Of a stretch of DNA of 64,000 nt, positions 2,668-64,000 are shown piece by piece. The stretch is from a candidate division FCPU426 bacterium (GTDB lineage Bacteria; Oederibacteriota; JAAXVQ01; JAUVAV01). Within the stretch, counting starts at the first letter, position 1. Each line of letters starts with the position of its first letter. The stretch is from NCBI GenBank assembly GCA_040756875.1, contig JBFLYH010000001.1, positions 1,341,367 to 1,405,366 of the forward strand, read 5' to 3'. The position numbers were made by a program, and so were the translations under genes. The notes below the pieces were generated by a model, which had not been told where the DNA came from, searched no databases, and saw only the letters and a program-made list of their open reading frames with translations.

Positions 2668-2724
2668 GTCGTTTATCAGCGCCTGTAAACGGTCAGGCCT
2701 AACGCCAGAAAGGCAGGTTCGCAA

Positions 2725-30938: not shown

Positions 30939-31307
30939 TCAGGCACCCAGGATTGCGCGGATTTCGCGTTCAAATTCCTGGGGTTCAAACGGTTTGGTGA
31001 GGTAGGCGTCGGCGCCGGCTTCCCAGCCTTTTTGCACTTCCCGGGGATCGGCCATGACTGTCAGCATGACCACGGGGATATCGCGGGTGGCCGGGCTTTG
31101 CTTCAAACGGCCGCAGACTTCGAAGCCGTCCAAGCCCGGCATCATGACATCCAGGAGGATCAGGTCGGGCCGGATGCGCGCGAGCACGTCGAACAGTTCC
31201 TGCCCGCTTTTCGCCGGAATAACGGTGTAGCGTTGGGCGCTCAGAATAATGTCGATCAGACCACGAATGTCCTTCTCGTCGTCCACAACCACAATCGTTT
31301 TATTCAT
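30939..31307 (-). CDS. single-domain response regulator (CheY-like receiver)
   Basis: IVVVDDE...DLILLDVMMPGLDGFEVC...VVMLTV...YLTKPFE. Phospho-accepting Asp and conserved Lys present. No output domain. Confidence 0.85.
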   Translation of the reverse strand: MNKTIVVVDDEKDIRGLIDIILSAQRYTVIPAKSGQELFDVLARIRPDLILLDVMMPGLDGFEVCGRLKQSPATRDIPVVMLTVMADPREVQKGWEAGADAYLTKPFEPQEFEREIRAILGA

Positions 31308-46946: not shown

Positions 46947-48467
46947 TCACAACTTGAGGGATTTTACGCGGAAGACCGACACCTTGTCCCGTTTGCCCTT
47001 GACCGCCAGCGGCGTCAGCCGTTCGGCGACGACCTTGGCGTTCACCTGCAGGTAGGTTTCCTCGGAAATTAAAATGCTGCCGCCTTCGGCCACGGATTCC
47101 AAACGGGCCGCCAAATTCACCGAATCGCCGATGACCGTATAATCCATCTTCTGCGACGAACCCATGTTGCCCGAAACCACGTCGCCGGTGTTGATGCCGA
47201 TCCCGATGGTCACGGTCTTTTCCCCGGCCGCCCGGCGGCGCTGGTTCATTTCGTCCACGGCGATCTGAATTTCCAGGGCGCTGCGCACGGCCCGCAAGGC
47301 ATCATCTTCCTTGGCCAGCGGAATGCCGTACACGGCCATGACGCAATCGCCGACGAATTTGTCCAGCATGCCGCCGTTGCGAAGGATGATCTCGGTCTGC
47401 ACCGAGAGGTAACTGTTGATGATGGAAACGACCTCTTCAGGCTGCATGGTTTCGGACATGGCGGTAAAGCCGCGGATATCGGAAAACAGGATGGTGGCCC
47501 GCTTGCGGGCTCCGCCCAAAGCCATGCTGCCCGGATTTTTCAGGACCTCCTCCATCACCTGGCTCGACACATACGTGGAGAACGCGCCCTTGATCAGTTC
47601 CTTCTCACGCAGCGAACTGGCCATTTCGTTGAAGGCCGCGGTCAGCTCGCCCAGTTCATCCTTGCGGTTTACGCGCAGTTTCTGGTTGAGGTCTCCGGAG
47701 GCAATGGCCAGCACGCCGCCCACCAGGCGTTTGATGGGTTGCGTCAGGTATTGAGCCATCACAATGGCGCCGATCGCGCCCAGCAACAGCACCACGGCCG
47801 TGGCGATCAGCAGCTTGGCCGCCGCCTGTTTGACCGTCATGGCCACCAGCGATTCGGACATCGCCAGGTGCACCACGCCGATTTTTTTCCGGCCTTCGGT
47901 CAAGTCCGGCCGCGCCACGAATACCGGCACCGCGATGTCGATCCGGTGGTCTTTTTCGCCTATGGTGTAGGGCTGGACCTGGATCATTTCCCCCGAATAT
48001 TTCGTGATCTCCTTGGACGGAGGGTCGTATTTCTCTCCAGTTTTTTGGATATCGTTGTGGGCCACGATCTTGTCGTCGATGTCCACCATGGTGATCTCCA
48101 CCACGCCGGCGTTTCCGGTGATGTTGCCTGGCATACCCTGTTCTTCGCCGGTGATGTCGTCCCACAAAGACTGCAGCACGTTTCCCCAGGTAATGGAGGT
48201 CAGGGAATTCGAACCGGCTGCCGGCATGGTCTCATGGATGAGCGTGGCGCAGACCAAATCGTTCAGCACCGCCTCCCCGGCGGACGAGGCCAGGCTGCGG
48301 GCGATGGTCACACCGCGCTTGACCACCTCGGCCCGCAGGGAACGTTCCTGTTGGCGGTACGTCAGCCAGGTGGTCAGGGCCATGACCGACCCGATGGTCA
48401 GGATCATCAGGAAAGTGATCTGCACCATCAGGGGAATGCGGCCTTTGGCCTTCACGACTGGGCCCAT
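46947..48467 (-). CDS. class III adenylate/guanylate cyclase with periplasmic sensor domain and HAMP
   Basis: TM1 - about 170-aa periplasmic domain - TM2 - HAMP (ASGDLNQKLRVNRKDELGELTAAFNEM). CYCc core ATILFSDIRGFTAMSE...FVGDCVMAVYG...GINTGDVVSGNMGS. Confidence 0.8.
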   Translation of the reverse strand: MGPVVKAKGRIPLMVQITFLMILTIGSVMALTTWLTYRQQERSLRAEVVKRGVTIARSLASSAGEAVLNDLVCATLIHETMPAAGSNSLTSITWGNVLQSLWDDITGEEQGMPGNITGNAGVVEITMVDIDDKIVAHNDIQKTGEKYDPPSKEITKYSGEMIQVQPYTIGEKDHRIDIAVPVFVARPDLTEGRKKIGVVHLAMSESLVAMTVKQAAAKLLIATAVVLLLGAIGAIVMAQYLTQPIKRLVGGVLAIASGDLNQKLRVNRKDELGELTAAFNEMASSLREKELIKGAFSTYVSSQVMEEVLKNPGSMALGGARKRATILFSDIRGFTAMSETMQPEEVVSIINSYLSVQTEIILRNGGMLDKFVGDCVMAVYGIPLAKEDDALRAVRSALEIQIAVDEMNQRRRAAGEKTVTIGIGINTGDVVSGNMGSSQKMDYTVIGDSVNLAARLESVAEGGSILISEETYLQVNAKVVAERLTPLAVKGKRDKVSVFRVKSLKL

Positions 48468-48468
48468 G

Positions 48469-49752
48469 TCACTGAATTCCTTTCTTCAAAGCCACGGTCT
48501 CGATAAAAACGTCCACGATCTCCGGATCAAACTGCGTTCCGGACCCCTTCTTCAGTTCATCGATGGCCTGGGAACGGGTCATGGCCGAACGGTGTTTCTG
48601 CGCCGACGTCATGGCGTCGAAAGCGTCCGCCACGGCCAGAATGCGGGCTCCGAGCGGAATGTCCTTGCCCTTCAAACCGGCGGGATATCCCGCCCCGTCA
48701 TAGCGTTCATGGTGGTGCAAAACGAGCTTCACCGTTCCACGCAATGCCTGGATCTGGTTCAGGATTTCCGCGCCGACCATGGGATGTTCCTTGAGCTTCT
48801 TATACTCCTGTTCGGAAAGCTTGCCGGTGCTGTGCAGGATCGAATCCGGCACTGCGATGTGCCCCAGGTTCTGAACCTGCGCCGCCAGGCGGATGTTCTC
48901 CACTTCCTCAACAGCTAGTCCGATGACCTGGGCCACGCTGGCGGCGTACTCCGCGACCCGCTGATCGTGCCCGCCGGCGAATTTGTCGCGCGATTCCAGG
49001 GTTTTAGCCATGGCGCGCAACATGCCGATATAAAGCTCCTTGAGGTGCTCGGTCATCTCGTTGAACGCGTTGGCTACCAGGGTCAATTCATTCTGGCCCT
49101 TGAGATTGATTTTATAATTTAAGTTCCCCTCGCCAATGGCCTTGATGCCGTGCAACAGGTCGTTCAGGGGCCGCATGGTCATGTTGATCAACAGCACCGA
49201 GACGAACACGCCGATCAGCAGCAATCCGGCTGCGATGGACATGGACTCGCGGAACGTCTGATTGACGAAACGGTCAATGGCCCGCTGCGACATTCCCACG
49301 TGCACCGCGCCGATGCGGACGCCGTTGCGCAAATTGATGGGAATGGCTATATCTATGATCGGCTCTTTTTTATCGTCCTGGTAGGGCTGGATCAGTATTT
49401 CTTCATTGGTCAAAGGCCGTAGGCCCGGCGGTTCCACGTAGGACTTGCCCACGTCCTCGATGCGACTGTGGGCGAGGATCTGCATCCGGTCGTTGAGGGT
49501 GAGCGCGTACAATACGCCGTCGTTCTTCATGGTGCTGGTGACGAACGTGGCCAGGGCCAGCTGGTCATTGCCGATGAGCGAATCCGTGCTGACTGTGGCC
49601 AGATTTCTGGCTATCGTGGCGCCGCGGCGGGTCATCTCCCGCAGCAGAACATCACGCTCTTGGCGGATAAAAAAAAAGGTGGAGCCCAGGACCGTCACGG
49701 TCACCAGGGCGATCGTGATGAGAATAAACTGCAGTTTGATGCTGATCCGCAT
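48469..49752 (-). CDS. HD-GYP c-di-GMP phosphodiesterase with periplasmic sensor domain and HAMP
   Basis: Same TM1-sensor-TM2-HAMP layout as the cyclase. HD-GYP core GGHDQRVAEY...HHERYDGAGYP...ADAFDAMTS. Its stop is 1 nt from the cyclase start. Confidence 0.8.
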   Translation of the reverse strand: MRISIKLQFILITIALVTVTVLGSTFFFIRQERDVLLREMTRRGATIARNLATVSTDSLIGNDQLALATFVTSTMKNDGVLYALTLNDRMQILAHSRIEDVGKSYVEPPGLRPLTNEEILIQPYQDDKKEPIIDIAIPINLRNGVRIGAVHVGMSQRAIDRFVNQTFRESMSIAAGLLLIGVFVSVLLINMTMRPLNDLLHGIKAIGEGNLNYKINLKGQNELTLVANAFNEMTEHLKELYIGMLRAMAKTLESRDKFAGGHDQRVAEYAASVAQVIGLAVEEVENIRLAAQVQNLGHIAVPDSILHSTGKLSEQEYKKLKEHPMVGAEILNQIQALRGTVKLVLHHHERYDGAGYPAGLKGKDIPLGARILAVADAFDAMTSAQKHRSAMTRSQAIDELKKGSGTQFDPEIVDVFIETVALKKGIQ

Positions 49753-49880
49753 CCAAACCTCCGCCGGGTCACAGGCGGATGACTCAGATCCACATGCCCC
49801 GCGCAGTGAAAACGCCTGTAAACTAAAACCATTTCGTGGCGAAAAATGTCGTGGCGGTCAGTTTAGCAACTTAAATAAGT

Positions 49881-49950
49881 CATTGTCAAGAAAAAACCAG
49901 TCCGTTTCCACTTGACAAAAAATGAAAAAATCCTTTAAAATCTTGACAAA
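49881..49950 (+). promoter_or_regulatory. candidate sigma70-type promoter with inverted-repeat operator, upstream of the TolB-like gene
   Basis: TTGACA (about 49912) - 18 nt - TAAAAT (about 49936). Inverted repeat TTGTCAAG (49883-90) / CTTGACAA (49911-18), repeated again as CTTGACAA at 49942-49. AT-rich divergent intergenic region. Confidence 0.3.
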
Positions 49951-50029
49951 ATCACCAAGGAGGCAGAACGGACGCGAAGGTGTTGGAAACCAAATCCACT
50001 AAAATTTCCGGAGCTATTTGGCTAAATAT

Positions 50030-51661
50030 ATGACAATATTTCTTTCCATGCGACGCTCATCCAGCCTTCTTCCCCTTCTGATCCTATCGATTATTTTCAG
50101 CGGCGGGTGCAAAAAATCCCCCTCTCAGCCTGCCGTTTCACCGGCGCCAACCGCCCTGCCCTACTCGGATCAAATTCTGTATACCTCCGGCGGCCAGTTG
50201 TACCTGACTTCCCTGGACGGAGAGCAAACAAAAAAACTAAGCGCTGCCGGCCGCAATATCTGGTTTCCTTCCGTATCGCCGGATTATACGCGGTTGGCCT
50301 TTTGGGCCGCTTCAAACGGGTTCCACGAACTGTGGGCCTATGACATCGCCGGGGATTCGCTCCGGCAACTCACCTTTTTCAACCAAAAGCTCGCCCAGGC
50401 GCATCTGCAGAATTTCAATTTGCACAACGCGCCCGCCTGGGAGCCTGACGGCAGGCGCATCGTCTTTTCGCAGGCGGACAAACTCTGGAGCGTCGACGCG
50501 GAGGGATTCAACCTGGAAACCGTCCTGTCCGACGGCGTTTTTTACGCCCCGTCCCTGTCGCCGGATGGAAAACTGTTGGCTTACGTTTCAGAACGCGACC
50601 AGGCGCGCAATCTTTTTATTCGCCGGCTGGGCACGAACGAAGAATGGCCGGTGACCGCTTTTCCCTACACCCACTCGGCAGGAAGCCCGAGTTGGTCTCC
50701 GGACGGATCGTTGCTCGCATTTGCCCTGGTGGCAGGCGAACAGGTTGATATCTGGGTGGTGCGCCCGGACGGAGAACAGTTGCGGCGCCTGACCCAGGAT
50801 GGATACAGCAATTCACCCGTCTGGTCGCCGGATGGCCAGCGTCTGGCTTTCGCCTCCGGAAGGCAGGATCCGTATCACTGGGAAATTTGGGTCATGAACC
50901 GCGACGGCGGCGGCCAGTTTGCCGTAACCCGCAATGGAGGCTCGTCGCCGGTTTGGATCCGAATGTCCAAGCAAGCGGCTTCCCCGGCGCCCATAGTGGT
51001 TGCCACACGGGTTCAATCCGCCACCCCGGCGATTTCGCCGAAACCTACGGCTGCTCCGACTTATAAACCCACGGCCCAGCCTACAGCCAAGCCTACAGCT
51101 AAGCCTACTGCCAAACCCACTGCCAAACCTACGCCTCAACCGACTCCCCGGCCCACCGCCAAACCCACGCCCCGGCCCGCTGTGAAATCCGTCACCACGC
51201 CGGCACCTGCAGCCACCGCAACCGGCGGCGAGGAGGAGGCGGAGTACGAGGAGTATGAAGAATATGCCGACGAGGATCAGGCGGTATTGCCCGAAGCGGA
51301 TCTGGGCGCGGCCGTGGAAGGCAACCGCATTGTTTTCACGCCGAAAATCGAGTTCTACTTCGCCAAAGACATGATCAAACCGGGTTCGCTGCCCACCTTA
51401 AAACAACTGGCCGAAGAATTGGACGCTTATCCGGATGCTTCGCTGGTTGTCAAAGGATACATGCGCGGACCGGGGTTCCTTAAAAAAATCCTGCCCATTC
51501 TAAAGACGCTCTCCCGGGCCAGGGCCAACAGTGTCTTGCGCCACTTGATCGTGAATGAAAAAATCCGCCAGATCAACGTAACCGCACTGGGCGAGACCGA
51601 TCCCGTGCCTGACGTTGCGCGCAACCAGGAAAAACCCGTTCTCATCGTCGAAGTAAAGTAA
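50030..51661 (+). CDS. TolB-like beta-propeller lipoprotein fused via a (PTAK)n linker to an OmpA/Pal-like C-terminal domain
   Basis: ATG 50030 (track start 50018 is TTG). Lipobox LSIIFSGGC. Five-plus TolB/WD40-like blades with P(S/A)(W/V)SPDG motifs. Low-complexity PTAKPTAKPTAKPTAKPTPQPTPRPTAKPTPRP. C-terminal ~150 aa with OmpA-like pattern (FTPKIEFYFAKD...LKQLAEELDAYPDASLVVKGY...RANSVLRHL). Confidence 0.7.
   Translation: MTIFLSMRRSSSLLPLLILSIIFSGGCKKSPSQPAVSPAPTALPYSDQILYTSGGQLYLTSLDGEQTKKLSAAGRNIWFPSVSPDYTRLAFWAASNGFHELWAYDIAGDSLRQLTFFNQKLAQAHLQNFNLHNAPAWEPDGRRIVFSQADKLWSVDAEGFNLETVLSDGVFYAPSLSPDGKLLAYVSERDQARNLFIRRLGTNEEWPVTAFPYTHSAGSPSWSPDGSLLAFALVAGEQVDIWVVRPDGEQLRRLTQDGYSNSPVWSPDGQRLAFASGRQDPYHWEIWVMNRDGGGQFAVTRNGGSSPVWIRMSKQAASPAPIVVATRVQSATPAISPKPTAAPTYKPTAQPTAKPTAKPTAKPTAKPTPQPTPRPTAKPTPRPAVKSVTTPAPAATATGGEEEAEYEEYEEYADEDQAVLPEADLGAAVEGNRIVFTPKIEFYFAKDMIKPGSLPTLKQLAEELDAYPDASLVVKGYMRGPGFLKKILPILKTLSRARANSVLRHLIVNEKIRQINVTALGETDPVPDVARNQEKPVLIVEVK
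51040..51180 (+). repeat. in-frame 12-nt tandem repeats encoding (PTAK)n / PT(P/A)xP linker
   Basis: cctacagccaag / cctacagctaag / cctactgccaaa / cccactgccaaa ... read directly. Coding, inside the TolB-like gene. Confidence 0.6.
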
Positions 51662-51803: not shown

Positions 51804-53768
51804 TTACCAGTTGGTGGGCATGGCCTTGCGCGCCTTGTCCTTGTCCGCGCATTCGGCTTTCAAGGCCTGCAAGGTGGGGAAAAGCTTTTCCGCGGATGCA
51901 ACCGTGGTGGCATAGTCTTCGCTGCGCAGCAGCAACTTGATCTTGCCGAGCTCCTGCTTCAGTTCCGCCACTTGCTTGGGAAAATAGCGTTCTCCGTTCA
52001 GCGTATCAATGTCCAGCATCAACTTGACGGCCCGGCCATAAGCGCCGCGGGCGCGCTTGCGCAACCGTTGAACACGCGCGTCCAACGGAGCGGTCAGGGT
52101 AGCCTTTTCGGGGGCAGGCGTCACGGCCGGGACCGGCGCAGAATCCCGGGATTTTTCCGGCGCGGGCGCCGGCGGCGCTTTGACTTCTTCGGCTTCGGCT
52201 TTTTCCCTCCGGACGGCGCGGACCGCCAAACGCTCGGCTTCACGGCTAACCGCCTGGGAAATCGCCTGCACACGTTCGCTTTCCCCCACTGAAAGGTTTT
52301 CCTCGGCTAAGGCCAGTTGTTTCTGCAACGCCGAAAGTTCTTCGTCGAAATATTCCCGCACTCGCCGGTTTTTCCTGGCTGCCGAGAAGGCCGCCCGGGC
52401 GCGCTGCAAACTCGAACCGGCCTCGCGCAAGGCTGCACGCCGGGCCACCAGCGCAGCCTCCCGTTCCTTGCGTTCCTGCTGTTGCTTTTGTTGTTCGGAC
52501 AACACCTCGAGTTTCTTCTGCACGGACTGGAGCAACAGGGAGGCCTGGCTGTGGCGGGGGTCCAAGGTCTGCGCCTTGCGGTATTCCGAAGCGGCACTAA
52601 GCAGGTTACCCTCCTTTTCGAATTCCAACCCCTGGTCGATATGAATGCGGATTTCAGCCTGGCGTTTGAGGGTCTCATTCAGCGCCGTGATTTTTTGGCG
52701 CAGGGTTTGGTCATCCGGAACCATTTCCGCGGCTTCTTCCCACGCCTGCAACGCCGCCTGGGCGTCGCCTTCGCGGCGGTAGTCCTCGCCCTCCTCGATC
52801 AAGCGGTCGGCCAGCGCGCGGGCGTCATCCTCGGCGCTTTGGGAAGCTCCAAACGTGAATTGCAGGTTCAACAGATGCGTGACTCCGGCCTCGCTGAATC
52901 CCCCCAGAGGAATGACGAGGGCGTATTCCACGCCCACGGACCACGCGGTTTGGGGCAGACGCAGGGTAAACCCTGCCGTGGCTTCGGAAAGCTCGCGGTC
53001 GCCCAGAGCCAGTCCCAAGCGGCTCGCGAAAATGCCGCGAACCCACCAGGCCTCCCCGCCCAGGGCCAGGCGATAGTGTCCGGACTGCGTCAGGGCTTCG
53101 AAGCCGGCCAGATAATTTTCCTGCCTCCAGCCCGCACCGGCCCGCAACTGGAACGGGACGCGCGACTCGGCGCCGGACAACGAAAGGTTGGGCTGGTTCA
53201 CGTTCGCCAACGACAAACCAGCGGTGATTTCGTCCGTCAGATACATCAGCCCGCCCACGTCCACACCCACGGCCAGGGCCGACGTCCCGCCGTCGAAGTA
53301 GGGGTTCGCGGCAGTTGCAGCGGAATCCAGATAGCGCTGCTGCAGCAGTTTTAAAGCGATGCCGGCCATATAGCTTCCGGTTTCATCGAGCGCCAGGCCA
53401 TATCCCAGGGCCCAAAGGTTTTCCTGATACATATCTTGTAAAGAGCGTTGAAACCACGAGGCGCCGATCGAACCGTAATCTTCCAGGGGTTGGATATACG
53501 ATATCCTGCCCTCCGACAACACTCCGTCATTGAGTCCGGCCAGCAGACGCCCATAGCTGAGACCTGCCATCGGCGTCGGAATCTGCGCCATTCCCGCGGG
53601 GTTGGAAAAAAGCGCATCCGTGTCGTCAGCCAGGGCGCAGAACGCGCCAGCCATGCCCGCCGAACGGGCGCCGGGTTTTTCCAGCTCAAACCCCGCCTGC
53701 ACGAGGCGCGGCCCGCAAAAAGCGGCCGTTCCGAACAGCAACAATGCCCAACCCCAGGAGGTTTTCAT
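51804..53768 (-). CDS. FadL/PorV-family beta-barrel fused to a C-terminal TPR + long coiled-coil + Pro-rich region (654 aa)
   Basis: Signal peptide. ARSAGMAGAFCALADDTDALFSNPAGMA, the same Gly-rich plus NPA hatch signature as 17561..18484. About 330 aa of amphipathic beta-strands. Then TPR-like helices, an E/K/R/Q-rich coiled coil, APPAPAPEKSRDSAPVPAVTPAPEKA, and a ~100-aa tail. ATGA overlap with 53765..54676. Confidence 0.6.
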   Translation of the reverse strand: MKTSWGWALLLFGTAAFCGPRLVQAGFELEKPGARSAGMAGAFCALADDTDALFSNPAGMAQIPTPMAGLSYGRLLAGLNDGVLSEGRISYIQPLEDYGSIGASWFQRSLQDMYQENLWALGYGLALDETGSYMAGIALKLLQQRYLDSAATAANPYFDGGTSALAVGVDVGGLMYLTDEITAGLSLANVNQPNLSLSGAESRVPFQLRAGAGWRQENYLAGFEALTQSGHYRLALGGEAWWVRGIFASRLGLALGDRELSEATAGFTLRLPQTAWSVGVEYALVIPLGGFSEAGVTHLLNLQFTFGASQSAEDDARALADRLIEEGEDYRREGDAQAALQAWEEAAEMVPDDQTLRQKITALNETLKRQAEIRIHIDQGLEFEKEGNLLSAASEYRKAQTLDPRHSQASLLLQSVQKKLEVLSEQQKQQQERKEREAALVARRAALREAGSSLQRARAAFSAARKNRRVREYFDEELSALQKQLALAEENLSVGESERVQAISQAVSREAERLAVRAVRREKAEAEEVKAPPAPAPEKSRDSAPVPAVTPAPEKATLTAPLDARVQRLRKRARGAYGRAVKLMLDIDTLNGERYFPKQVAELKQELGKIKLLLRSEDYATTVASAEKLFPTLQALKAECADKDKARKAMPTNW

Positions 53769-54746: not shown

Positions 54747-55988
54747 TTACTTCACCAGCGCAACCTTTTTCTTTTCGCTTCGGACAATGCCACCCTGCTG
54801 GTTGGAAATCCTGATCGTCAGCAGATAAATCCCGGGCGCGGCTTCCGGCGCATTCCAGACGCAGGTCAGCATCTGTCCACTGCCGCCATCCCGGGACTCC
54901 AGGATGTGCGCCACCCTTTCCCCGCACATATTGTAAATATCCACTGCCACTTGAACCTGCCCCTCGGCCGGATAGGCGATCACCACCCGGTTACGGGCCG
55001 GATTGGGATAGACGGTCGTTTCACTCAAACGCAGAAGCGGGGAGGGCGTGGCGGTCATCGTCGCCGTCACGGTGGGAGTCCCCGTATCCGCAGGGGTCGG
55101 CGTCACGGTGAATGAAGGCGTGACCGTGGGCGTCGGTGATAGGGTCGGAGTGTCGGTCCAGGTGCCGGTGGCAGTGAGCGTCGGCGTCATCGTCAGCGTC
55201 GGCGAAGCTGTCGCGGTAAATGTCACGGTCAGGGTCGGGGTCGCGGTCGGCGTGGCAGTGGAAGTTTCAGTAGCCGTAGAAGTCGGCGTAACGGTCTGGG
55301 TTGGAGTCGAAGTCAGGGTGACGGTCGGGGTGAGGGTCGGCGTGGGCGTGGGAGGCGGCATGCGCACCGTGACGTAATCCACGACAAAGTAGGTGCTGCC
55401 AAAACCCTCGGCCGTCAGTTGCACGCGGAAAGTGTGCCCCGGGCCGATCCACCCCATGATCGAGGCATAATTAAGGATGAATGTCCCGGTTGTGCTTGTG
55501 CTGGAGACAAGGTCCCGATACTGCCAGGCCCCGTTGATTTCCTGGATGCCAACCTTCCATGTCATGGATGGCGAGAGCGAGGTCACGCGGATCTCAATGT
55601 GCGTGAAAACACTGGTGTTTGGAGAAAGGAGCGGAGAAAGCACCTTGCCCCAGGTGCTGTCCGCTGTCCGCGTCACGGCCGCTTGCGAAACCAGGCAGGA
55701 GTAGGAAATATGCGCATTGAACAGCGGATCGTCGCTTTCATCCTGCCAGCCTGCAGGCTGTGCACCCGGCGGTCCTGCATCAAAGTCGTCCCGCCAGTAT
55801 TCATAAGTCGGCGTATTGGTCGGAGTGGGCGTGCTGGTGGAGGTGCAGGTGTGAGTTGATGTCGCCGTCAGGGTAGGTGTGTCTGTCGGGGAGGCGGCCC
55901 AAAGCCCCTCTCCTTGGGCCAACAAAACCAGCCACAGGCCGGCCGGTATCATAAGGGTGTGCTGCATTACCCTTTTCATGGGCATCAA
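54747..55988 (-). CDS. secreted protein: signal peptide, TPT linker, one copy of an uncharacterised ~145-aa domain, TPT linker, T9SS-type CTD
   Basis: CTD: VYPNPARNRVVIAY...GERVAHIL...PGIYLLTIRISNQQGGIVRSEKKKVALVK. Domain core: YWRDDFDAGPPGAQPAGWQDESDDPLFNAHISYS...AAVTRTADSTWGKVLSPLL...WKVGIQEINGAW...GWIGPGHTFRVQLTAEG. Confidence 0.7.
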   Translation of the reverse strand: MMPMKRVMQHTLMIPAGLWLVLLAQGEGLWAASPTDTPTLTATSTHTCTSTSTPTPTNTPTYEYWRDDFDAGPPGAQPAGWQDESDDPLFNAHISYSCLVSQAAVTRTADSTWGKVLSPLLSPNTSVFTHIEIRVTSLSPSMTWKVGIQEINGAWQYRDLVSSTSTTGTFILNYASIMGWIGPGHTFRVQLTAEGFGSTYFVVDYVTVRMPPPTPTPTLTPTVTLTSTPTQTVTPTSTATETSTATPTATPTLTVTFTATASPTLTMTPTLTATGTWTDTPTLSPTPTVTPSFTVTPTPADTGTPTVTATMTATPSPLLRLSETTVYPNPARNRVVIAYPAEGQVQVAVDIYNMCGERVAHILESRDGGSGQMLTCVWNAPEAAPGIYLLTIRISNQQGGIVRSEKKKVALVK

Positions 55989-56172: not shown

Positions 56173-59100
56173 TTATCGGATAATAGCGACCTTTTTAGTT
56201 TCAGAAAAAACGATTCTTCCGTTCGCGTCAAGTATCCTGATCCGAGCTAAATACACCCCTGGCGCCTGGTCCGAACAATTCCAGAGCAGGGTCATGGTCT
56301 GCCCCCGGCCAGCCTGTTGATTCTCGATCAAATGCGCCACGCGCTCTCCTGCCAACTGGTAAATATCAATGGTGACCGTATAATTGCCGCTGCGGGTATA
56401 AGCGAAGGTCGTCCGGTTACGGGCCGGGTTGGGATAGACCATGACCCGGCCTGCCTCCAGCCAGGGCGTAGGCGAAGGCGTGGCTGTGTTCAGCGTGCCG
56501 GCACCGATCGCGTTGTCAGGCGTGGGGCTGATGGTGAAGGTCGGAGTGGGCGTGGGCGGCAAGGCATAGATTCTCACTGAATCAGCCAGTAAATAACTGC
56601 CCGGGCTTCCTTCCAGCGTCAGTTGGATAAAAAAACTCTGGCTGCCGCTGCGACCCATGACCGTGGGAATGTCGAACACAAAACTTCCGGTCTGGGAGGT
56701 CAACGGCATGAGCGTCCAGAAGGACCACGCCCCGCCGTTTTCCTGGATGCCCGCGTTCCACACTGCGCCGGGCGAGAGGCCGAGCACCCGGAGTTCCAGC
56801 CGGTTATACTGGGAAACATTGCACGTTAAAGCCGGAGAAAGCACCTTGCCCCAGGTGTCGTCCGCCGTGCGGGTAAGCGCGGCGCAGGACGGCGAGGCAG
56901 AGTAGGCCAGATGACAATCAAAGGCCGGGTTCTCGCTTTCATCGCTCCACCCCGGCGGTTGCACCCAAAACGTCCCGTTGAAGTCCTCCAGCCAGAAGGT
57001 GTCGGCCGGCGTCGGACTCGGGGTCGGCCGGTTGCCGTTCACCACGCTGACGTTTTCGACCAGCACCCAGGAGTTGTCCAACGAAAACTGGCTTTCCACA
57101 CCGCCGACCGCCACGGTGAAATACTGGAGCCCACTTTGCAGGGAGAGCGGCAGGTAGTGGCGTAGATTGAATTTGAAAGCCCCCTTCACCGGGGAATCAT
57201 AGTGCATGCGGACCGAATACCCGCTGGGAGTGTTGCTTAAAAAGGCGTACCATTTTCCATAGAGGTCTTTGATATCGATGCGCAGGTCAGCCTCCTGGTC
57301 CATGTCAACGCTGAACGGGTAAATTTTTTCGATCGAGCCGTACCCGTAAGGCTCAGCCCCGCGATACAGGTCATAGATCCTGACCCCATTCTCCAGCGGC
57401 GCAAACTGGGCGCGATTATAAACCGGCGTCCACTGGGCGGTGACGCCCGGCAGCTGGGTGTTGAGCATGATCTGCTCGCCCCCCGCAGCCGGAGGCACCA
57501 CGGTCCAGGGGTCGGACGGCCGGGGCACTGGTCCCGGGTTTTTCAGGTTGCTGCCTGTGTAAGCAGTGGCGTTCACCTCGGCCCCGGACCGCAGCAGTCC
57601 GGCCGCCGTGAACAGCCCCATCAAATGCGGCGTCCCGTCTTGTTCGGTGTCGTTGAGCAGCCACACCAGCCCGCCCGCGAGGTCGGTCTGGTAGATGCTG
57701 TCCCAGACATGGGTGAAATAGTCGCTCACTTCCGCCGCCGGCGGGCTGAGGTTGAAATCCATCCCAAACTCTTCAAACAGTATGGGTTTAACCTGGCCTA
57801 ATGATTGCATCAGGGTTCTGGCTTGCATGGCCGCGCCGATATAAGCGTCCCTGCGGTCGTAATAGTGAATGGTCACCACATCCACAGGCGCCAGATCCAG
57901 GCTGCGCAGGCTGTCCGGCCAGGCCGTAGCCGCTATCACCAAATGATTGGGATCCAGGCTCTGCATATACCCCGCCAGATCCTGGTGCCAATCCAAGGCG
58001 TACGGATGAGCTGTCAAATCACCGTTAACCAGCGCCACATAGACATCCAACTCGTTGGTGACGCCCCACCCTAAAATGCGGTCGTCGTCCCGGAACCGCT
58101 CCAGAATGAGGCGCACATGGTTCTTTTGGTCCGTTCGGGTCGCGGGAGAATAATTCCGCGTATAGGGGAAAAACGTGAATTCCACTTTCAACCCCGCTTT
58201 GTCCGCAAAGTACAGGAATTGTTCCATGCGGGCCAACATCTCGGGCTTGACCGCGGCCCCGCCGAATTCATCATAATGGATGAACGTGCGGATGGTGTTG
58301 AATCCCAGGCCGGTCGCGCGGCTCAGCTCGGTTTCGATCATGGCTTGATCCCATTCCACCCACATCTTTTGCCAGCCGTGCGCCGAGGGATAGTAATTGG
58401 CCCCTTTGATTTTAACGATCGTTCCCTGCAACTCCAATTGTTCGGGGTCCGCGCCGCTGACCCGGACGAAATCACCGGCCGCCGCCTGGCGGCGGTTCCC
58501 GAATACCCGCACACTCTCCACCGTGATTTGTTCGCCCGCCGCCCCTTCCACGGTAATTTGCACCACGATATCCTTTTCGCCGGACCAGCCGATGATCTGG
58601 GCGTAATCAAACTCGAAAACCCCGTCCGTGGTCTGACTGGCGCATAAATCCCAGTAATTTGAAGTCCCATTTTCCAAAATGCCCACTTTCCACGAAACCG
58701 CGGAAGAAAAGCTGCTGACATTGATCTCCAGGCGGTTATAGGCGTTGACATCACAGCGAATGGGCGAGGACAACACCTTGCCCCAGACATCCTCCGCAGT
58801 GCGCACGATTGCAGCCGACGAAACGCCGCTGTAGTTTATCTCGGCGTTGAAAGTCGCATCATCCGTTTCATCGAACCAATTGGAGGGCTGGAGGCCTGCG
58901 GTGCCGGTAAAATCCTCATGCCATATGTCCGCCGTCAGGGCGCTGGGCGTGGGGGTACGGGTCGGCGTTGAAGTCGGCCCGTCGGGCGTGAAGCTTGGGG
59001 TGGGCGTGGGGCTGGCCGTCGGAGTGGGTGGAGCCGAACGCACGCTCACATAATCCGCCACCAGATACTTCCCCACACCTCCCTCCACGGTCAATTGAAC

Positions 59101-59673
59101 GTAAAAATCCTTCGTGCCGCTCCATCCCATGGCTGAAGCATAGGGATATATGAAAGTTCCGATCTGGCTCTGGCTCGCGCACAGGCTTTGGTACGTCCAG
59201 GAACCCCCATATTCCTGTATACCGATCTTCCAGGTGGTGGTCGGTGAAAGCCCGGCGATCTTGACTTCTACATAACCAAACTGGCTGGTATCGCAATGCA
59301 AAAGCGGCGAAAAAACCTTGCCCCAGACATCTTCGGCGGTCCTGGTTACCGCGGCCAGGGACGGTTGAAAGGAATAAGCTATTTCTGCATTGTAGGTATT
59401 GACATCCGTTTCGTCCTGCCATCCGGCCGGTTGTAGTCCGGGTGTACCTCCGTTAAAATCATCCCGCCAGAATTCAATCACCGGTGTGGCGGTCGGGGAG
59501 GGCGTGAGGGTAAACGTTACGGTTGCGGTGGGAGAAGGTGTCTGGGTATCCGTATCTGTCGGAGTAAACGTAGGGGAGGCTGCCATGACGGTGTTGAAAA
59601 TGCAAAAAAACATCACTATGTTAAAAGTAATGATTCCTGCCCACGTTCTCTGCTTCCCAGGCATGACAGCCAT
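56173..59673 (-). CDS. 1166-aa secreted protein: three copies of the uncharacterised ~145-aa domain, a central clan GH-A (GH5-like) TIM-barrel glycoside hydrolase, and a T9SS-type CTD
   Basis: Domain copies begin FWRDDFNGGTPGLQPAGWQDETD, IWHEDFTGTAGLQPSNWFDETD and FWLEDFNGTFWVQPPGWSDESE. GH-A region: GFNTIRTF...GWGVTNELD (acid/base NE)...VVTIHYYD...ILFEEFG (nucleophile E). CTD: VYPNPARNRTTFAY...GVYLARIRILDANGRIVFSETKKVAIIR. Confidence 0.75.
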   Translation of the reverse strand: MAVMPGKQRTWAGIITFNIVMFFCIFNTVMAASPTFTPTDTDTQTPSPTATVTFTLTPSPTATPVIEFWRDDFNGGTPGLQPAGWQDETDVNTYNAEIAYSFQPSLAAVTRTAEDVWGKVFSPLLHCDTSQFGYVEVKIAGLSPTTTWKIGIQEYGGSWTYQSLCASQSQIGTFIYPYASAMGWSGTKDFYVQLTVEGGVGKYLVADYVSVRSAPPTPTASPTPTPSFTPDGPTSTPTRTPTPSALTADIWHEDFTGTAGLQPSNWFDETDDATFNAEINYSGVSSAAIVRTAEDVWGKVLSSPIRCDVNAYNRLEINVSSFSSAVSWKVGILENGTSNYWDLCASQTTDGVFEFDYAQIIGWSGEKDIVVQITVEGAAGEQITVESVRVFGNRRQAAAGDFVRVSGADPEQLELQGTIVKIKGANYYPSAHGWQKMWVEWDQAMIETELSRATGLGFNTIRTFIHYDEFGGAAVKPEMLARMEQFLYFADKAGLKVEFTFFPYTRNYSPATRTDQKNHVRLILERFRDDDRILGWGVTNELDVYVALVNGDLTAHPYALDWHQDLAGYMQSLDPNHLVIAATAWPDSLRSLDLAPVDVVTIHYYDRRDAYIGAAMQARTLMQSLGQVKPILFEEFGMDFNLSPPAAEVSDYFTHVWDSIYQTDLAGGLVWLLNDTEQDGTPHLMGLFTAAGLLRSGAEVNATAYTGSNLKNPGPVPRPSDPWTVVPPAAGGEQIMLNTQLPGVTAQWTPVYNRAQFAPLENGVRIYDLYRGAEPYGYGSIEKIYPFSVDMDQEADLRIDIKDLYGKWYAFLSNTPSGYSVRMHYDSPVKGAFKFNLRHYLPLSLQSGLQYFTVAVGGVESQFSLDNSWVLVENVSVVNGNRPTPSPTPADTFWLEDFNGTFWVQPPGWSDESENPAFDCHLAYSASPSCAALTRTADDTWGKVLSPALTCNVSQYNRLELRVLGLSPGAVWNAGIQENGGAWSFWTLMPLTSQTGSFVFDIPTVMGRSGSQSFFIQLTLEGSPGSYLLADSVRIYALPPTPTPTFTISPTPDNAIGAGTLNTATPSPTPWLEAGRVMVYPNPARNRTTFAYTRSGNYTVTIDIYQLAGERVAHLIENQQAGRGQTMTLLWNCSDQAPGVYLARIRILDANGRIVFSETKKVAIIR

Positions 59674-59849: not shown

Positions 59850-62333
59850 TTATTTGATAATAGCGACTTTTTTCTTCTCTTTCATAAGCACCTGTCCGCC
59901 TGCATCCGTGATTACAATCCGGCATAAATATACGCCCGGCGCCACGTTCACCGCATCCCAGGCAGTCCTCAACGTCTGGCCGGTTCCGCCGTTTACCGTT
60001 TCCGTGACCGAAGCCACCCGTTCACCCGCCAGCGTAAAGATATCGATGGTTACTTTCCCCGCGCCGGGCACGGTGTAGGCAAAAAACACTTTGCCTTTGG
60101 CCGGGTTGGGATAGGGCAAGACCTGGTTGGCAGCCACGAAAGGCGTGGCCGTCGGGGTGGCGGTCGGCGTGGGGGTATTCATTGCCAGTTGCGCGGTTGG
60201 CTCAGGCGTGGGGGTCAAGGTCAGGGTTGGAACGGGTGTGGAGGTTGCCGAAAAAGTTGGAGTCGCGGGTATGTAGATGGCGCCTAGTACGGTCTCTTCG
60301 CCGCCCACACGCACCCAATCCACTTCCACGGCCTTGCCCGGCGCACCCTCCACGGTCAGCTGGACGCGGAAGGCGTGCGTACCACTCCATCCTGTTGCGG
60401 TTGCGTAATTATACTTGTATGTTCCGGTTCCGGTCTGACTTCCGCTGAGGTTGTAGTAGGTCCAACTGCCCTCAGCCTCCTGGATGCCGACTTTCCAGCT
60501 GGCGTCGACGCTCACCGAAGCCACGGCTACCTCCACATAGCTATATACCGAAACATTGCAGTTGATGACCGGCGAAAGCACTTTGCCCCATTCACCCTCG
60601 GCGGTGCGCGTTACCGCGGCCAGTGAGCTGACCGCGGAGTAAGCGATTTCGGCGTTGAAATTGGCGTCATCCGTTTCGTCCATCCAGTTCGCGGGTTGTT
60701 GCCCCTGGGTGCCCGCAAAATTCTCGAAATACGCATTGCTCGGTGTCGGAGTGGGAGTGGGCGTTATGGTCGGCGTGGGGGTGGGCGAGGGCATGCCTTC
60801 ACGGTGAATCCGCACCTGGTCAAACGTGACAACGCAATTGCCGCCCTCGGAAATCAGTTCCACCCCCAGGTTTTTCACCCCGCTCCAGCCGGAGGCGGTC
60901 GGGATGTCGAAGGAATAGGTGCCCGGCGCCGCCAGCGAACCGCTGCAGACATGCTCCTCCCACCCGCCGGCCTGGCTGAACACCGCGATCTTGGCCGTGC
61001 CGCCCGAAATGGCCGAGATCGTCACCTCCAGAGTGCTGTACAGGTTCAAATTCACATCCGCAGAATAGGACAGCACTTTGCCCCACTCCTGGCCGGAGAC
61101 CGTGGTCACTTCGGCCAGGCTGTCTGTGGCCGCGTAGGCGATCTGGGCGTTCATGCCGCCGTCGTCCGATTCATCGTACCATCCTGCCGGCTGCGCCCCC
61201 TGCGAGCCGCCGGAGAAGTGCTGGTTCCAGAACAGGGGGTTGTTTTCCCACCAGTCGATCCGGTCGCCCCCGAACGTGGGCGCGACGACATCGGCATCGC
61301 CATCCCCGTCCACGTCAGCGGTTATCACATCAATCACGCCCCCGTAATTGTCATCGATGACATGGGCGGTGATATTTTCGGAGCCGTCGTTCTCCCACCA
61401 GACGATGTCACAGGAATCCTTGGCGCAGCCGACCACATCCAGGTCCCCGTCATTGTCCATGTCGGCCGCCAGGACGGATTGCGCTCCGTCGAAGCCGGTG
61501 GCGATGACATGTTTGGTAAAACTCATCGACAGGTTGTTCTCATACCACGCAACCGTATCCTGCCCTTCGGAAGCCGCCAAAATGTCCACGTCGTTGTCCT
61601 GGTCCAAATCCACAGCCACCACATCCGTAGGATCGATAAAATTCGAGTCGACTACCCTCTCGGTATATTTATCGAGAGAAGGGTCGTATTCAAGGACCAA
61701 AATGTCCTCGACATCAACTGCGCCTGCAATGACATCAATATCCCCGTCATTGTCCATATCACCGGCGTCGATGAAATAAGTATACTTCGGATTGACGAAG
61801 ACGTTTTTTTCAACAAAGCCGCCGGAGCCGTTGTTGATCCATTTGATAATATCGCCCTGGTATATCTTGCTGCAGAGCACGTCCAGATCATTGTCCAGGT
61901 CCAAATCCTTGACCCTTATCTTTTTGATCCAGGCAAATTCCGGGTATGGCTCCGAGGTCATGTTGTGGTGGGTGAAATTCTCCGAGCCGTCGTTCTCCAG
62001 CCACATGGAACGGCTGCCGCCGACGGCAATATCCACATCCCCGTCCCCGTCCAAATCGCCGGCACTGACCGTATCATCATACTTGATATTTGTCCCGGCC
62101 GTATGCCTGATAAAATTGCCGACACCGTCATTTTCCCACCAATAAACCGTTTGCTCCACAATGCCAATAATGTCCATATCGCCGTCAGTATCCAAATCCG
62201 CAGCGCAAATTTCCAAAGGTCCATCGACGCTATCCTCGACTTCGCGTTTTTGAAAGTCACTGCTCCAAGCCAAGGATTGCAGTAAAAGCAAGGCCGCACC
62301 CAACATGCCGTACCGGACGATTGAATTGCGCAT
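59850..62333 (-). CDS. 827-aa secreted protein: FG-GAP/VCBS-like beta-propeller, two copies of the uncharacterised ~145-aa domain, T9SS-type CTD
   Basis: Signal peptide. Six-plus blades with DxDxDGDxDI(V/A) motifs (DLDTDGDMDIIG, DLDGDGDVDIAVG, DMDNDGDIDVIAG...). Domain copies begin FWNQHFSGGSQGAQPAGWYDESDD and AYFENFAGTQGQQPANWMDETDD. CTD: PYPNPAKGKVFFAY...GVYLCRIVITDAGGQVLMKEKKKVAIIK. Confidence 0.75.
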   Translation of the reverse strand: MRNSIVRYGMLGAALLLLQSLAWSSDFQKREVEDSVDGPLEICAADLDTDGDMDIIGIVEQTVYWWENDGVGNFIRHTAGTNIKYDDTVSAGDLDGDGDVDIAVGGSRSMWLENDGSENFTHHNMTSEPYPEFAWIKKIRVKDLDLDNDLDVLCSKIYQGDIIKWINNGSGGFVEKNVFVNPKYTYFIDAGDMDNDGDIDVIAGAVDVEDILVLEYDPSLDKYTERVVDSNFIDPTDVVAVDLDQDNDVDILAASEGQDTVAWYENNLSMSFTKHVIATGFDGAQSVLAADMDNDGDLDVVGCAKDSCDIVWWENDGSENITAHVIDDNYGGVIDVITADVDGDGDADVVAPTFGGDRIDWWENNPLFWNQHFSGGSQGAQPAGWYDESDDGGMNAQIAYAATDSLAEVTTVSGQEWGKVLSYSADVNLNLYSTLEVTISAISGGTAKIAVFSQAGGWEEHVCSGSLAAPGTYSFDIPTASGWSGVKNLGVELISEGGNCVVTFDQVRIHREGMPSPTPTPTITPTPTPTPSNAYFENFAGTQGQQPANWMDETDDANFNAEIAYSAVSSLAAVTRTAEGEWGKVLSPVINCNVSVYSYVEVAVASVSVDASWKVGIQEAEGSWTYYNLSGSQTGTGTYKYNYATATGWSGTHAFRVQLTVEGAPGKAVEVDWVRVGGEETVLGAIYIPATPTFSATSTPVPTLTLTPTPEPTAQLAMNTPTPTATPTATPFVAANQVLPYPNPAKGKVFFAYTVPGAGKVTIDIFTLAGERVASVTETVNGGTGQTLRTAWDAVNVAPGVYLCRIVITDAGGQVLMKEKKKVAIIK

Positions 62334-62545: not shown

Positions 62546-64000
62546 CTACTTGATCAGCGCCACTTTCTTGGTCTGGTTGAGGACGATCTTCCCTTCCCCG
62601 TCTGTTACCACGACCCGCACCAGGTAAATCCCCGGAGCCACACCGGCGGCCTTCCAGCTGGTGGTCAGCGTCTGGCCCGTGCCCTGCTTGTGTTCCACAA
62701 TGCTCGCCACCCTTTCGCCGGTCAGGCGGAAGATGTCGATTTGGACTTTCACCGGCCCGTTAACCGTGTAGGCGAAATTCACCTGCCCGCGCGCTGGATT
62801 GGGATAGGCCGCCACGGTTTGCGCCTTGACAAAGGGCGTGGAAGTGGAAACCGGCGTCGGCGTGCCCGTGGCTGCGGATATAATCGTTTCCGGCGTGCTG
62901 GTCTTGGTGGCCGTGGGAGTCGGGGTCGGCGTCGAGGTAAGGGTGGAAGTCGGCGGAATGTAGATAATGGCAGCCTGGGCTTCCTGCTGCATGAGTTGGT
63001 CGCCCACGGCCTGCGCTTCAGCCTGAGTTTCAAAGTTCATGCTGGCAGTTATCTTTTCATCCATCCGTTCCACTGACGCGGCGCTTACCCACCAATCCGG
63101 CACCACGATAATGGGAACATAGCTGATTCCTCCCAATCCCTGGTTGTCCACACTGATGATATTGACCTCCCAGTTCTTGTTGCCGGCGGTGAAGGCGGCA
63201 CTGGCCGGTTCTCCGGCAGGACCGGTGATGCGCGTGACTTCTTTCACTCCGCCGAAAGTGCCGGAACCGGTTATCACGCGGTAACGCAGGGTGATACTCG
63301 GCTGCGGTGTAAGTTGATAGAGCGAAGTCGCCAAGATATTCTGGGTATGCGTAGTGTGCATGAAGTAAGACAATTCCGGCCAGGCCCTAACCCTTTGCGG
63401 AGTTTTCGGTGTCGGCGTGGGCGTCGGCGTGATCGTCGTTTCCGAAGTTGAGGTATACGTCTCGGTCGGCGTATGGGTATAGGTGTAGGTTTCCGTCGGC
63501 GTCTCGGTGAGTGTCGGAGTCAGCGTCGGGGTATAGGTCGGCGTATCCGTTGCCGTGTCGGTCCACGTTTCGGTCGGGGTCTCGGTCGGCGTGTCCGTGG
63601 GCGTGTCGGTCGGGGTCTCGGTATACGTGTACGTCGGTGTCTCAGTTGGGGTGTCGGTCGGGGTGTCAGTTGGCGTCTCGGTCCACGTTTCAGTCGGAGT
63701 CTCGGTCGGTGTATCCGTGGGCATGTCAGTCGGGGTCTCGGTATACGTGTACGTCGGTGTCTCAGTTGGGGTGTCGGTCGGGGTGTCGGTTGGCGTCTCT
63801 GTCCACGTTTCGGTCGGTGTCTCGGTCGGTGTATCCGTGGGCGTGTCAGTCGGGGTCTCGGTATACGTGTACGTCGGTGTCTCAGTTGGGGTGTCGGTCG
63901 GGGTGTCAGTTGGCGTCTCGGTCCACGTTTCAGTCGGAGTCTCGGTCGGTGTATCCGTGGGCGTGTCAGTCGGGGTCTCGGTATACGTGTACGTCGGTGT
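62546..64000 (-). CDS. secreted repeat protein with T9SS-type CTD, 5' end outside the window (frame stays open through the 120-bp tandem repeats to position 64000)
   Basis: CTD: [38 protein letters not shown]...[29 protein letters not shown] central ~150-aa globular region ([10 protein letters not shown]...[16 protein letters not shown]). N-terminal (TPTDTPTE)n. The track's start at 63724 is just the only ATG in an otherwise open repeat frame. Confidence 0.65.
63555..64000. repeat. near-perfect 120-bp tandem repeat (at least 3.7 copies, continues past window end), coding for a 40-aa [40 protein letters not shown] unit
   Basis: Lines at 63601, 63721, 63841 and 63961 are in register with 0-3 mismatches per copy. 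Period 120 nt = 40 codons, so frame is preserved. Confidence 0.8.

Follow-up and report, generated by a model that had tools for sequence, protein, structure and literature searches.

When the HD-GYP family was reviewed, none of its members with an extracytoplasmic sensor had been characterised (bioRxiv 10.1101/2021.11.05.467447), and that a catalytically dead HD-GYP protein can act as a receptor has been shown only recently, in 2026, for DvhD of Desulfovibrio vulgaris (structures 9RBZ/9RC0/9RC2), which is hydrolytically inactive and functions as a receptor or switch (PMC13090378). Here we describe a pair of genes that has to be compared with such proteins. It occupies positions 46947 to 49752, on the minus strand, of a 64,000-nucleotide stretch of contig JBFLYH010000001.1 (assembly GCA_040756875.1, from a candidate division FCPU426 bacterium), the whole of which was analysed and is called the window in what follows. 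The first gene encodes a membrane protein with an HD-GYP-type domain in which Gln-Asn stands in place of the catalytic His-Asp dyad ('QN-GYP'), and the second a membrane-bound class III cyclase.

DvhD is similar to the HD-GYP-type protein of the window in being a membrane protein that has a Cache-type domain in the periplasm and, at its C terminus, an HD-GYP domain carrying a substituted dyad (SQ in DvhD). It differs in having a dCache and a PAS domain where the window protein has an sCache and a HAMP domain, in having lost the HH motif that the window protein keeps, and in being encoded with a BTLCP protease and adhesins, whereas the neighbours here are the cyclase, a low-molecular-weight (LMW) phosphatase, RpiB and a PD40 lipoprotein. 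PmxA of Myxococcus xanthus (MXAN_2061; bioRxiv 10.1101/600031) shares both the order Cache, transmembrane segment (TM), HAMP, HD-GYP and an Rxx(K/R) motif that is non-canonical, but its HD dyad is retained and it is active as a cGAMP phosphodiesterase, with RxxQ, where the window protein has QN and QxHR, and pairing with a cyclase has not been reported for it. PA2572 (YN-GYP), HnoD (SE) and ECA3548 (HT) also carry substituted dyads; these three do not hydrolyse cyclic di-GMP (c-di-GMP), and they regulate through protein-protein interaction (PMC3411652, PMC3774798, bioRxiv 10.1101/2021.11.05.467447). They are, however, cytoplasmic, linked to REC or PilZ domains, and have neither an extracytoplasmic sensor nor a cyclase partner. 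Finally, in the MASE10-HAMP proteins (Galperin and Chou, bioRxiv 10.1101/2021.11.05.467447) one sensor followed by HAMP is joined either to HD-GYP or to adenylate/guanylate cyclase outputs, as it is here, but that sensor is an integral membrane domain of 6 TM segments instead of a periplasmic Cache domain, and neither operonic pairing nor degeneracy of the HD dyad has been described for it.

The Cache-TM-HAMP-HD-GYP architecture (PmxA), inactive HD-GYP regulators (PA2572, HnoD, ECA3548, DvhD) and the use of one sensor with either output (MASE10-HAMP) were therefore already known. What is new with respect to the literature searched is a clade of HD-GYP proteins with an extracytoplasmic sensor in which the catalytic His is lost and which is strictly operon-linked to a predicted adenylate cyclase with a paralogous sensor; in that literature we found no description of an HD-GYP gene paired with an adenylate cyclase gene in an operon.

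The gene pair and its two sensors

The features of the pair are given below, with the evidence for each in brackets (aa, amino acids).

48469..49752, minus strand: upstream gene, coding for a membrane protein of 427 aa built of TM1, an sCache_3_2 sensor, TM2, HAMP and a degenerate HD-GYP domain, 'QN-GYP' (open reading frame, Pfam)
49249..49665, minus strand: single-Cache/PDC sensor of the upstream protein, aa 30-168 (AlphaFold model, Foldseek)
49039..49194, minus strand: HAMP domain of the upstream 427-aa protein, aa 187-238 (Pfam HAMP, E=4e-12)
48517..49014, minus strand: HD-GYP-type domain without HD dyad, aa 247-412 (matches to solved HD-GYPs)
48868..48873, minus strand: Gln294-Asn295 at the catalytic His-Asp dyad, H221/D222 of PmGH (ungapped alignment)
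48682..48717, minus strand: retained HHHERYDGAGYP motif, comprising H276/H277/E and GYP, aa 346-357 (alignment, site table)
48589..48600, minus strand: QKHR at the guanine-recognising RxY[K/R] motif, R314..K317 of PmGH (alignment, site table)
48468..48468, minus strand: intergenic spacer of 1 nt, TGA C ATG (read from the sequence)
46947..48467, minus strand: downstream gene, coding for a predicted adenylate cyclase of 506 aa in the membrane, built of TM1, an sCache_3_2-like sensor, TM2, HAMP and a cyclase domain of class III (open reading frame, Pfam)
47823..48356, minus strand: periplasmic sensor of the cyclase, aa 38-215, paralogue of the upstream sensor (BLASTP, model)
48114..48224, minus strand: 36-aa insertion in the cyclase sensor, aa 82-118 (sensor alignment)
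46971..47501, minus strand: catalytic domain of the class III cyclase, aa 323-499, containing D330, K370, D374, T444, N451 and R455 (alignment, solved relatives)
49860..49889, minus strand: sigma-70-like promoter match 5' of the pair, TTGACA-18-TAAACT with extended TG (consensus scan alone)

An earlier reading of this DNA, made from its letters only (the sequence-only reading), had drawn the two open reading frames and the single nucleotide between them, and both genes are indeed found on the minus strand with exactly those ends. The 427-aa protein is 100% identical to the NCBI protein P0121, from a metagenome-assembled genome of candidate division FCPU426, and the 506-aa protein is identical to P0001. 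The junction reads ...CAG TGA C ATG GGC, which makes the gap exactly 1 nt; an AAGGA Shine-Dalgarno-like stretch lies within the end of the upstream gene, 9-15 nt before the downstream ATG, and a scan of the minus strand found no terminator-like site between the two genes or ahead of the next one. For so tight an operon the translational coupling that had been proposed is probable, judging from the sequence. The architecture had also been read correctly, since hydropathy and Pfam give each protein two hydrophobic segments around a periplasmic domain and then a HAMP domain, and so had the two outputs: Pfam scores the 427-aa protein at 46.6 bits for HAMP and 149.3 bits for HD_5/HD, and the 506-aa protein at 60.7 bits for HAMP and 106.4 bits for Guanylate_cyc.

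The paralogy of the two sensors, which the sequence-only reading had deduced from short shared motifs, holds beyond those motifs, all of which we found in the sequences. The N-terminal halves of the two proteins align with E=4e-27. When the periplasmic parts are compared without TM segments or HAMP, they still align by themselves (BLASTP E=7.7e-16, 29% identity), and a Smith-Waterman comparison restricted to the sensors gives z=22.9 against 1000 shuffles, so that the similarity is not the generic one of TM segments and HAMP domains. A periplasmic domain of about 170 aa had been expected in both; this fits the cyclase, with a sensor of about 178 aa, and not the HD-GYP-type protein, whose sensor has about 139 aa. 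The difference is due to the 36-aa insertion in the cyclase, seen in all 13 of the 13 aligned members of its family.

Both sensors are predicted to adopt a PDC fold. The AlphaFold model of the upstream sensor (pLDDT 88) has the topology a1-a2-b1-b2-loop-b3-b4-b5-aC, and its best Foldseek matches are the sensor domains of WalK/YycG, CitA and DcuS, with E values of 2e-8 to 1e-5. That of the cyclase sensor (pLDDT 84.5) shows the same fold with an extra helix and a disordered loop that stem from the insertion, and matches best to DcuS (3BY8). The Pfam family sCache_3_2 (PF17203, cutoff 28.4 bits) recognises the upstream sensor at 45.9 bits; the cyclase sensor scores 20.8 bits, under the cutoff, and its orthologues carry PF17203 matches. 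These relatives came from the fold search: a sequence search of the sensor against the PDB gave CitA alone, at E=0.6.

There are 33 sensor positions that are conserved and identical across both families, several of them polar and located in the beta2-beta3 loop or in beta3/beta4. They include H95, Y105, E117, Q122, Y124 and D134, in the region of the PDC ligand pocket, and they speak in favour of related ligands for the two sensors, as far as sequence can indicate it. Still, in two other lineages of the pair (lineages 2 and 3, described below) the two sensors of one operon can be aligned by BLAST only weakly or not at all, suggesting that having the same sensor in both proteins is not a conserved property of the module.

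Catalytic residues of the two output domains

The cyclase has all it should need for catalysis. Its Guanylate_cyc match (PF00211, aa 323-499) compares with a cutoff of 21.9 bits, and the metal-binding Asp residues D330/D374, the substrate-binding K370/T444 and the transition-state residues N451/R455 are all present, invariant in 13 relatives down to 39% identity, and intact in the orthologues at loci L082, L083, L085 and L095. The closest solved catalytic domains are those of Cya2 (2W01/6FHT) and of Pseudomonas aeruginosa CyaB (3R5G), with E values from 2e-41 (CyaB) to 4e-49. CyaB shares with the window cyclase the Lys/Thr substrate pair and the motifs DKFVGD and DYT.IG.VNLA.RLE, whereas Cya2 (2W01) has Glu at the Lys position. 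The Lys/Thr pair is the mark of class IIIb. The window cyclase is accordingly predicted to be of this type and, from Lys370/Thr444, to produce cyclic AMP (cAMP), which agrees with the rise in a cyclic nucleotide postulated by the sequence-only reading. CyaB has a MASE2 membrane domain and Cya2 is a guanylate cyclase (Glu/Gly); a Cache-HAMP input or a paralogous HD-GYP partner is not known for either. We also considered an obligate heterodimer between the QN-GYP protein and the cyclase. It is unlikely to be required, given that the cyclase of the window's own lineage carries the six residues and could form two sites as a homodimer.

The situation of the upstream protein is different. The domain is well recognised among solved HD-GYPs, namely V-cGAP3 (5Z7C, E=4e-34), PmGH (4MCW, E=4e-32), PA4781 (4R8Z) and DvhD (9RBZ, about 5e-23), and besides its HD_5 score it keeps the HHExxDGxGYP motif despite the missing dyad. 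In ungapped alignments to four solved HD-GYPs, the window's LAAQVQNLGHIAVPD stands opposite LAAPMHDIGKVGIPD, so that AAQVQNLGH faces AAPMHDIGK. In the numbering of PmGH, H221/D222 have become Gln294-Asn295, K225 is His, R314-x-Y-K317 reads Q-K-H-R, and the third-metal ligand E185 is Phe, as in the binuclear subfamily; H189, H250, H276, H277, D305 and the Tyr of GYP are kept. The label HD-GYP thus stands as far as the HD_5/HD match and the GYP motif go, and fails for the dyad at residues 294-295. These states were obtained through alignment-based mapping, which replaced a classification by regular expressions that was unreliable for distant proteins. The 'HD' of GGHDQRV was examined as a possible dyad and rejected: its His aligns with H189 of PmGH, and the Asp follows by chance.

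In PmGH, H221A or D222A essentially abolishes activity (PMC4159591), and K225, R314 and K317 have roles in the metal centre and in guanine recognition (PMC4159591; bioRxiv 10.1101/2021.11.05.467447), the latter being the function of the RxY[K/R] motif (bioRxiv 10.1101/2021.11.05.467447; bioRxiv 10.1101/600031). The natural variants DvhD, with SQ for HD (PMC13090378), PA2572, with YN (PMC3411652, PMC3774798), and HnoD and ECA3548, with SE and HT (bioRxiv 10.1101/2021.11.05.467447), are inactive. Because the dyad, K225 and RxY[K/R] are all changed, and because the corresponding dyad mutations abolish PmGH activity, the upstream protein is most likely not a c-di-GMP phosphodiesterase, on this comparison of residues.

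This bears directly on the interpretation given by the sequence-only reading, in which both enzymes would be active and one periplasmic cue would simultaneously raise cAMP and lower c-di-GMP. The tight operon and the paralogous sensors with their 33 identical conserved positions would suit such a scheme, and the GGDEF and PilZ genes of the window imply that the organism uses c-di-GMP. Yet the lowering of c-di-GMP finds no support in a domain with QN for HD, His for K225 and QKHR for RxY[K/R], and the single cue has to be reconciled with sensors that share only 29% identity, stand a 36-aa insertion apart and, in lineages 2 and 3, have weak or no BLAST similarity within one operon. We regard this scheme as decidedly unlikely.

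Three lineages of the pair and a possible module

The sequence-only reading had asked whether the pairing persists in related genomes, and it does, in three lineages. In lineage 1, to which the window belongs, the HD-GYP gene is followed by the cyclase gene at seven distinct loci (the window/L001, L002, L003, L082, L083, L085, L099). The spacers are of 1, 1, 1 and 14 nt where they were read, with Shine-Dalgarno-like purine runs: apart from the window, L082 (TGA A GTG) and L085 (TAA C GTG) have the 1-nt spacing and L083 the 14 nt. QN, or rarely QS, occurs together with QKHR in all 33 listed clusters of close homologues that are 58-100% identical. In lineage 2 (L086-L089) the HD-GYP protein is 36% identical and its dyad reads 'ID' (H221I); the gene order is HD-GYP, two cyclases and a HATPase_c_2 protein, with a divergent PD40 protein and a spacer of about 20 nt. 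In lineage 3 (L094, L095) the HD-GYP protein is 33% identical, the dyad reads 'KD' (H221K) and the cyclase comes next, after 2 nt or with a TAATG overlap, in a neighbourhood that is otherwise unrelated. Over the three lineages the spacers between the two genes range from a 1-nt overlap (-1) to 21 nt. These contexts come from look-ups of exact proteins and from scans: scanning GTDB with an alignment of the cyclase yielded mostly generic HAMP-cyclases, with the pair at 2 of 80 loci, and a DNA-pattern scan of a metagenome collection for the QN motif gave a single locus, to be counted as one more example and not as a census.

Relatives of the same architecture with a canonical dyad behave differently. 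Four of them (at L090, L092, L093 and L096) have no cyclase neighbour, that is, 0/4 are paired, and in these four proteins (P0158, P0182, P0184 and P0242, the last being the closest, at 38%) the site string is the canonical YHHDKHHHYDRYR. In the HD-GYP family as a whole, 127 of the 150 best representatives at 50% identity have the canonical HD. The three substituted lineages have in common the loss of H221, the loss of K225 and Y316H, and a neighbour-joining tree groups them as a clade (71/100 bootstraps; 94/100 for QN and ID together). Probably, then, the catalytic His was lost and the cyclase partner gained a single time, with the module maintained ever since.

It could be argued that the two proteins are independent receptors, left adjacent by inherited synteny after an old tandem duplication and a domain swap, with no coupling between them. 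In lineage 1 the whole neighbourhood is syntenic (a PorV-like barrel/TPR gene, the divergent PD40 lipoprotein, the pair, the LMW phosphatase, RpiB, serine hydroxymethyltransferase, a dCMP deaminase and more), so adjacency there could be passive, and some cyclases of the family are unpaired. However, lineages 2 and 3 still have the pair although its other neighbours are different there, spacers as short as -1 to 2 nt are found again in distant members, and none of the four canonical-HD relatives is paired. We find mere inherited adjacency very improbable.

Nor does the substituted domain look like a remnant. No other part of the protein is as conserved: identity within lineage 1 is 69-78% for this domain and 60-72% for the sensor, and between lineages 48-50% and 28-31%, respectively; by this measure the domain is under purifying selection and not decaying.

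The explanation that we favour, and that we hold to be somewhat better than an even call, is that the locus is a conserved two-gene module consisting of a sensor-regulated adenylate cyclase and a non-catalytic regulatory partner derived from an HD-GYP protein. The operon would encode two paralogous inner-membrane receptors, each made of TM1, a single-Cache domain (sCache_3_2/PDC), TM2 and HAMP. Binding of a ligand at the Cache domain of the cyclase would be relayed through HAMP and alter the synthesis of cAMP. The upstream protein would be produced in a constant ratio to the cyclase and act with it as a non-catalytic regulatory or nucleotide-binding module, by likeness to DvhD, PA2572 and HnoD; its ligand and role are inferred, as is a physical or regulatory connection of the two proteins. 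A more specific form of this idea, rather doubtful and based on analogy, is that H221-substituted HD-GYPs are dedicated non-catalytic partners that set the output of a Cache-HAMP adenylate cyclase, their domain either binding a cyclic (di)nucleotide or contacting the catalytic domain of the cyclase through the GYP loop. The contact is suggested by analogy with the interaction between RpfG and GGDEF proteins; GGDEF and class III cyclase domains share a common fold.

Several observations weigh against a module with a non-catalytic partner. Of the seven ligands of the binuclear site, five (H189, H250, H276, H277, D305) are strictly kept, as is the GYP Tyr; lineages 2 and 3 have D222 as well, and the pure receptors DvhD and HnoD have lost the HH motif too, unlike the window protein. 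There may therefore be a residual metal site and some hydrolytic activity. The residues with which DvhD contacts c-di-GMP, K582/R650/Y652/E668, are H/Q/H/G-S here, so that binding of c-di-GMP is not predicted with confidence either; M646 and the GYP Tyr are kept. Several cyclases of the same family (L004-L007, L013; 41-43% identical) have no HD-GYP gene within 6 kb, and the cyclase thus does not need a partner in all lineages. Also, the correlation between degeneracy and pairing probably reflects one ancestral event and is set against four canonical comparators only.

The retained ligands, which together with the GYP Tyr are strictly kept in all three lineages despite their deep divergence, are also an argument for a different view of the domain, namely that it is still a hydrolase, with a remodelled metal site and another substrate (3'3'-cGAMP, some other cyclic dinucleotide, or the cAMP of its neighbour), so that the two genes would form a make-and-break pair under two related sensors. 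The coordinated changes at the substrate-contacting positions K225, R314 and Y316 look more like respecification than decay, a single RxxK change switches PmxA, with its Cache-TM-HAMP-HD-GYP architecture, to cGAMP (bioRxiv 10.1101/600031), and Asn can take a metal-ligand position, as in Bd1817. But all dyad-substituted HD-GYPs that have been tested are inactive, the loss of H221 is by itself enough to abolish the activity of PmGH, cAMP hydrolysis is not known for any HD-GYP, and in lineage 1 the bridging Asp is gone as well. A remodelled hydrolase is unlikely.

The locus defines a clade where loss of the catalytic His coincides with strict linkage to a cyclase with a paralogous sensor. The facts of sequence are solid; the functional coupling of the pair is putative. 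Should the two proteins work together, they would connect directly, at the molecular level, the c-di-GMP and cAMP systems, which to our knowledge have so far been joined mainly via transcription factors and separate enzymes. Should they be dedicated partners, the module would be a hard-wired membrane converter between c-di-GMP-type and cAMP signalling that integrates two periplasmic inputs, in at least three deep lineages of uncultivated bacteria. Annotating genes of this kind as 'c-di-GMP phosphodiesterase' on nothing but the domain match would give the predicted signalling logic the wrong sign.

The related loci hold some further observations. The tandem HAMP-cyclases of lineage 2 (L086:7294-10522, L089:6925-10188) have complementary catalytic defects: the first has lost the first metal Asp (D330V) and keeps N451 and R455, and the second keeps both Asp residues and has N451I and R455Q. 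To judge from the residues, this is the pattern expected when heterodimerisation is obligate and yields a single active site, as in the mammalian C1/C2 pair. The gene that follows them encodes an RsbW-like HATPase_c_2 protein. TPR or PorV-like/TPR proteins adjoin relatives of the sensor family (L013:4084-5895, L092:1043-3004, L090:7512-8387, L093:4033-4884, L095:7868-9112), and this recurrence holds for cyclases as well as for canonical HD-GYPs, although the neighbourhoods are unrelated in other respects. At L096:955-1875 a periplasmic binding protein of the Phosphonate-bd type precedes P0242, the closest canonical-HD relative, which suggests a binding-protein-dependent input for that branch. 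In Rokubacteria, stand-alone HD-GYP proteins of 220 aa (L008:6638-7300, L009:9739-10398), with an intact HD dyad, Tyr at K225 and Glu at D305, are encoded about 2.4 kb downstream, on the opposite strand, of Cache-HAMP cyclases without the sensor insertion.

Neighbours of the pair and the rest of the window

The genes of the window that enter the comparisons below are the following.

50018..51661, plus strand: divergent lipoprotein combining a PD40 propeller of TolB-like type with an OmpA-like domain (Pfam PD40 94.8 bits, weak OmpA; NCBIfam TolB propeller, YiaD/OmpA-like)
30939..31307: receiver-domain gene, within 25 kb of the pair
26145..26483: PilZ gene, within 25 kb of the pair
24498..25475: GGDEF gene, within 25 kb of the pair
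1990..4641: sCache_2 protein and methyl-accepting chemotaxis protein (MCP), 42-47 kb from the pair
1..241, minus strand: CHASE2-like N-terminal fragment, 42-47 kb from the pair

The PD40 lipoprotein has the lipobox LSGGC and a Pro/Thr-rich linker between the propeller and the OmpA-like domain. The 265-bp spacer that separates it from the pair contains two back-to-back sigma-70-like matches (11/12 and 10/12, window 49860-49941), and homologues stand divergently beside the pair in lineages 1 and 2 (L002, L003, L082-L089, L099). It is a possible functional associate of the pair.

This neighbour leads to another alternative, in which the upstream protein would be an inside-out receptor like LapD or DvhD: a cytoplasmic nucleotide bound at the degenerate HD-GYP domain would act via HAMP on the Cache domain, and through it on a periplasmic partner such as the PD40 lipoprotein. 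DvhD provides the precedent, with a periplasmic Cache domain, a TM segment and an inactive, c-di-GMP-binding HD-GYP domain (PMC13090378). The model of the upstream sensor further matches the output domain that a LapD orthologue has in the periplasm (4U64, E=1.5e-3), as well as WalK, whose extracellular domain binds partner proteins, and the lipoprotein with its back-to-back promoter-like sites is shared by lineages 1 and 2 (E about 1e-48). On the other hand, genes for a BTLCP protease or an adhesin are missing, the c-di-GMP contacts of DvhD are not conserved, lineage 3 (L095) lacks the PD40 neighbour, and the invariant cyclase neighbour would be left without explanation. An inside-out receptor is thus, in our view, as improbable as the passive adjacency discussed above. 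For membership of the LapD/DvhD system proper, the missing protease and adhesin genes and the non-conserved contacts led us to reject it.

The sequence-only reading had also placed a series of signalling genes within 25 kb of the pair. This is true of the GGDEF, PilZ and receiver genes, and not of the sCache_2/MCP genes and the CHASE2 fragment. All of them, at 15-47 kb, belong to other transcription units, and give no evidence of linkage to the pair.

Downstream of the cyclase, on the same strand, genes for an LMW phosphotyrosine/arsenate-reductase-type phosphatase, RpiB and serine hydroxymethyltransferase follow (44729-46943, minus strand) with a 3-nt gap and 4-nt overlaps, with no terminator-like site found. 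L082 lacks the LMW phosphatase, and none was detected in L002. The order of this run resembles the ywlE-rpiB-glyA cluster of Bacillus subtilis.

On the other side of the lipoprotein lies a cluster related to type IX secretion (T9SS; 51804-64000, minus strand), which holds a PorV/PorQ-family barrel fused to TPR repeats (51804..53768) and no fewer than three proteins (54747..55988, 56173..59673 and 59850..62333) that combine a C-terminal sorting domain of T9SS type A with long TPTD/PT repeats; the open reading frame at 62546..64000 also carries PT repeats. The G+C content falls to 0.386 at 8001-10000, against 0.55-0.65 elsewhere in the window, and this stretch lies inside an open reading frame of 1271 aa (6064-9879, minus strand) with FG-GAP and NosD-like repeats and a T9SS sorting tail. 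A two-gene module is duplicated in tandem (10019-13261 and 13350-16624, minus strand), each copy encoding a Big_5-domain lipoprotein (476/483 aa) and a protein of 596/600 aa without Pfam match. Finally, two adjacent small proteins without Pfam match (36563-37120 and 37131-37784, minus strand) have similar N-termini, MARVKGSA... and ...MAKVKGTA....

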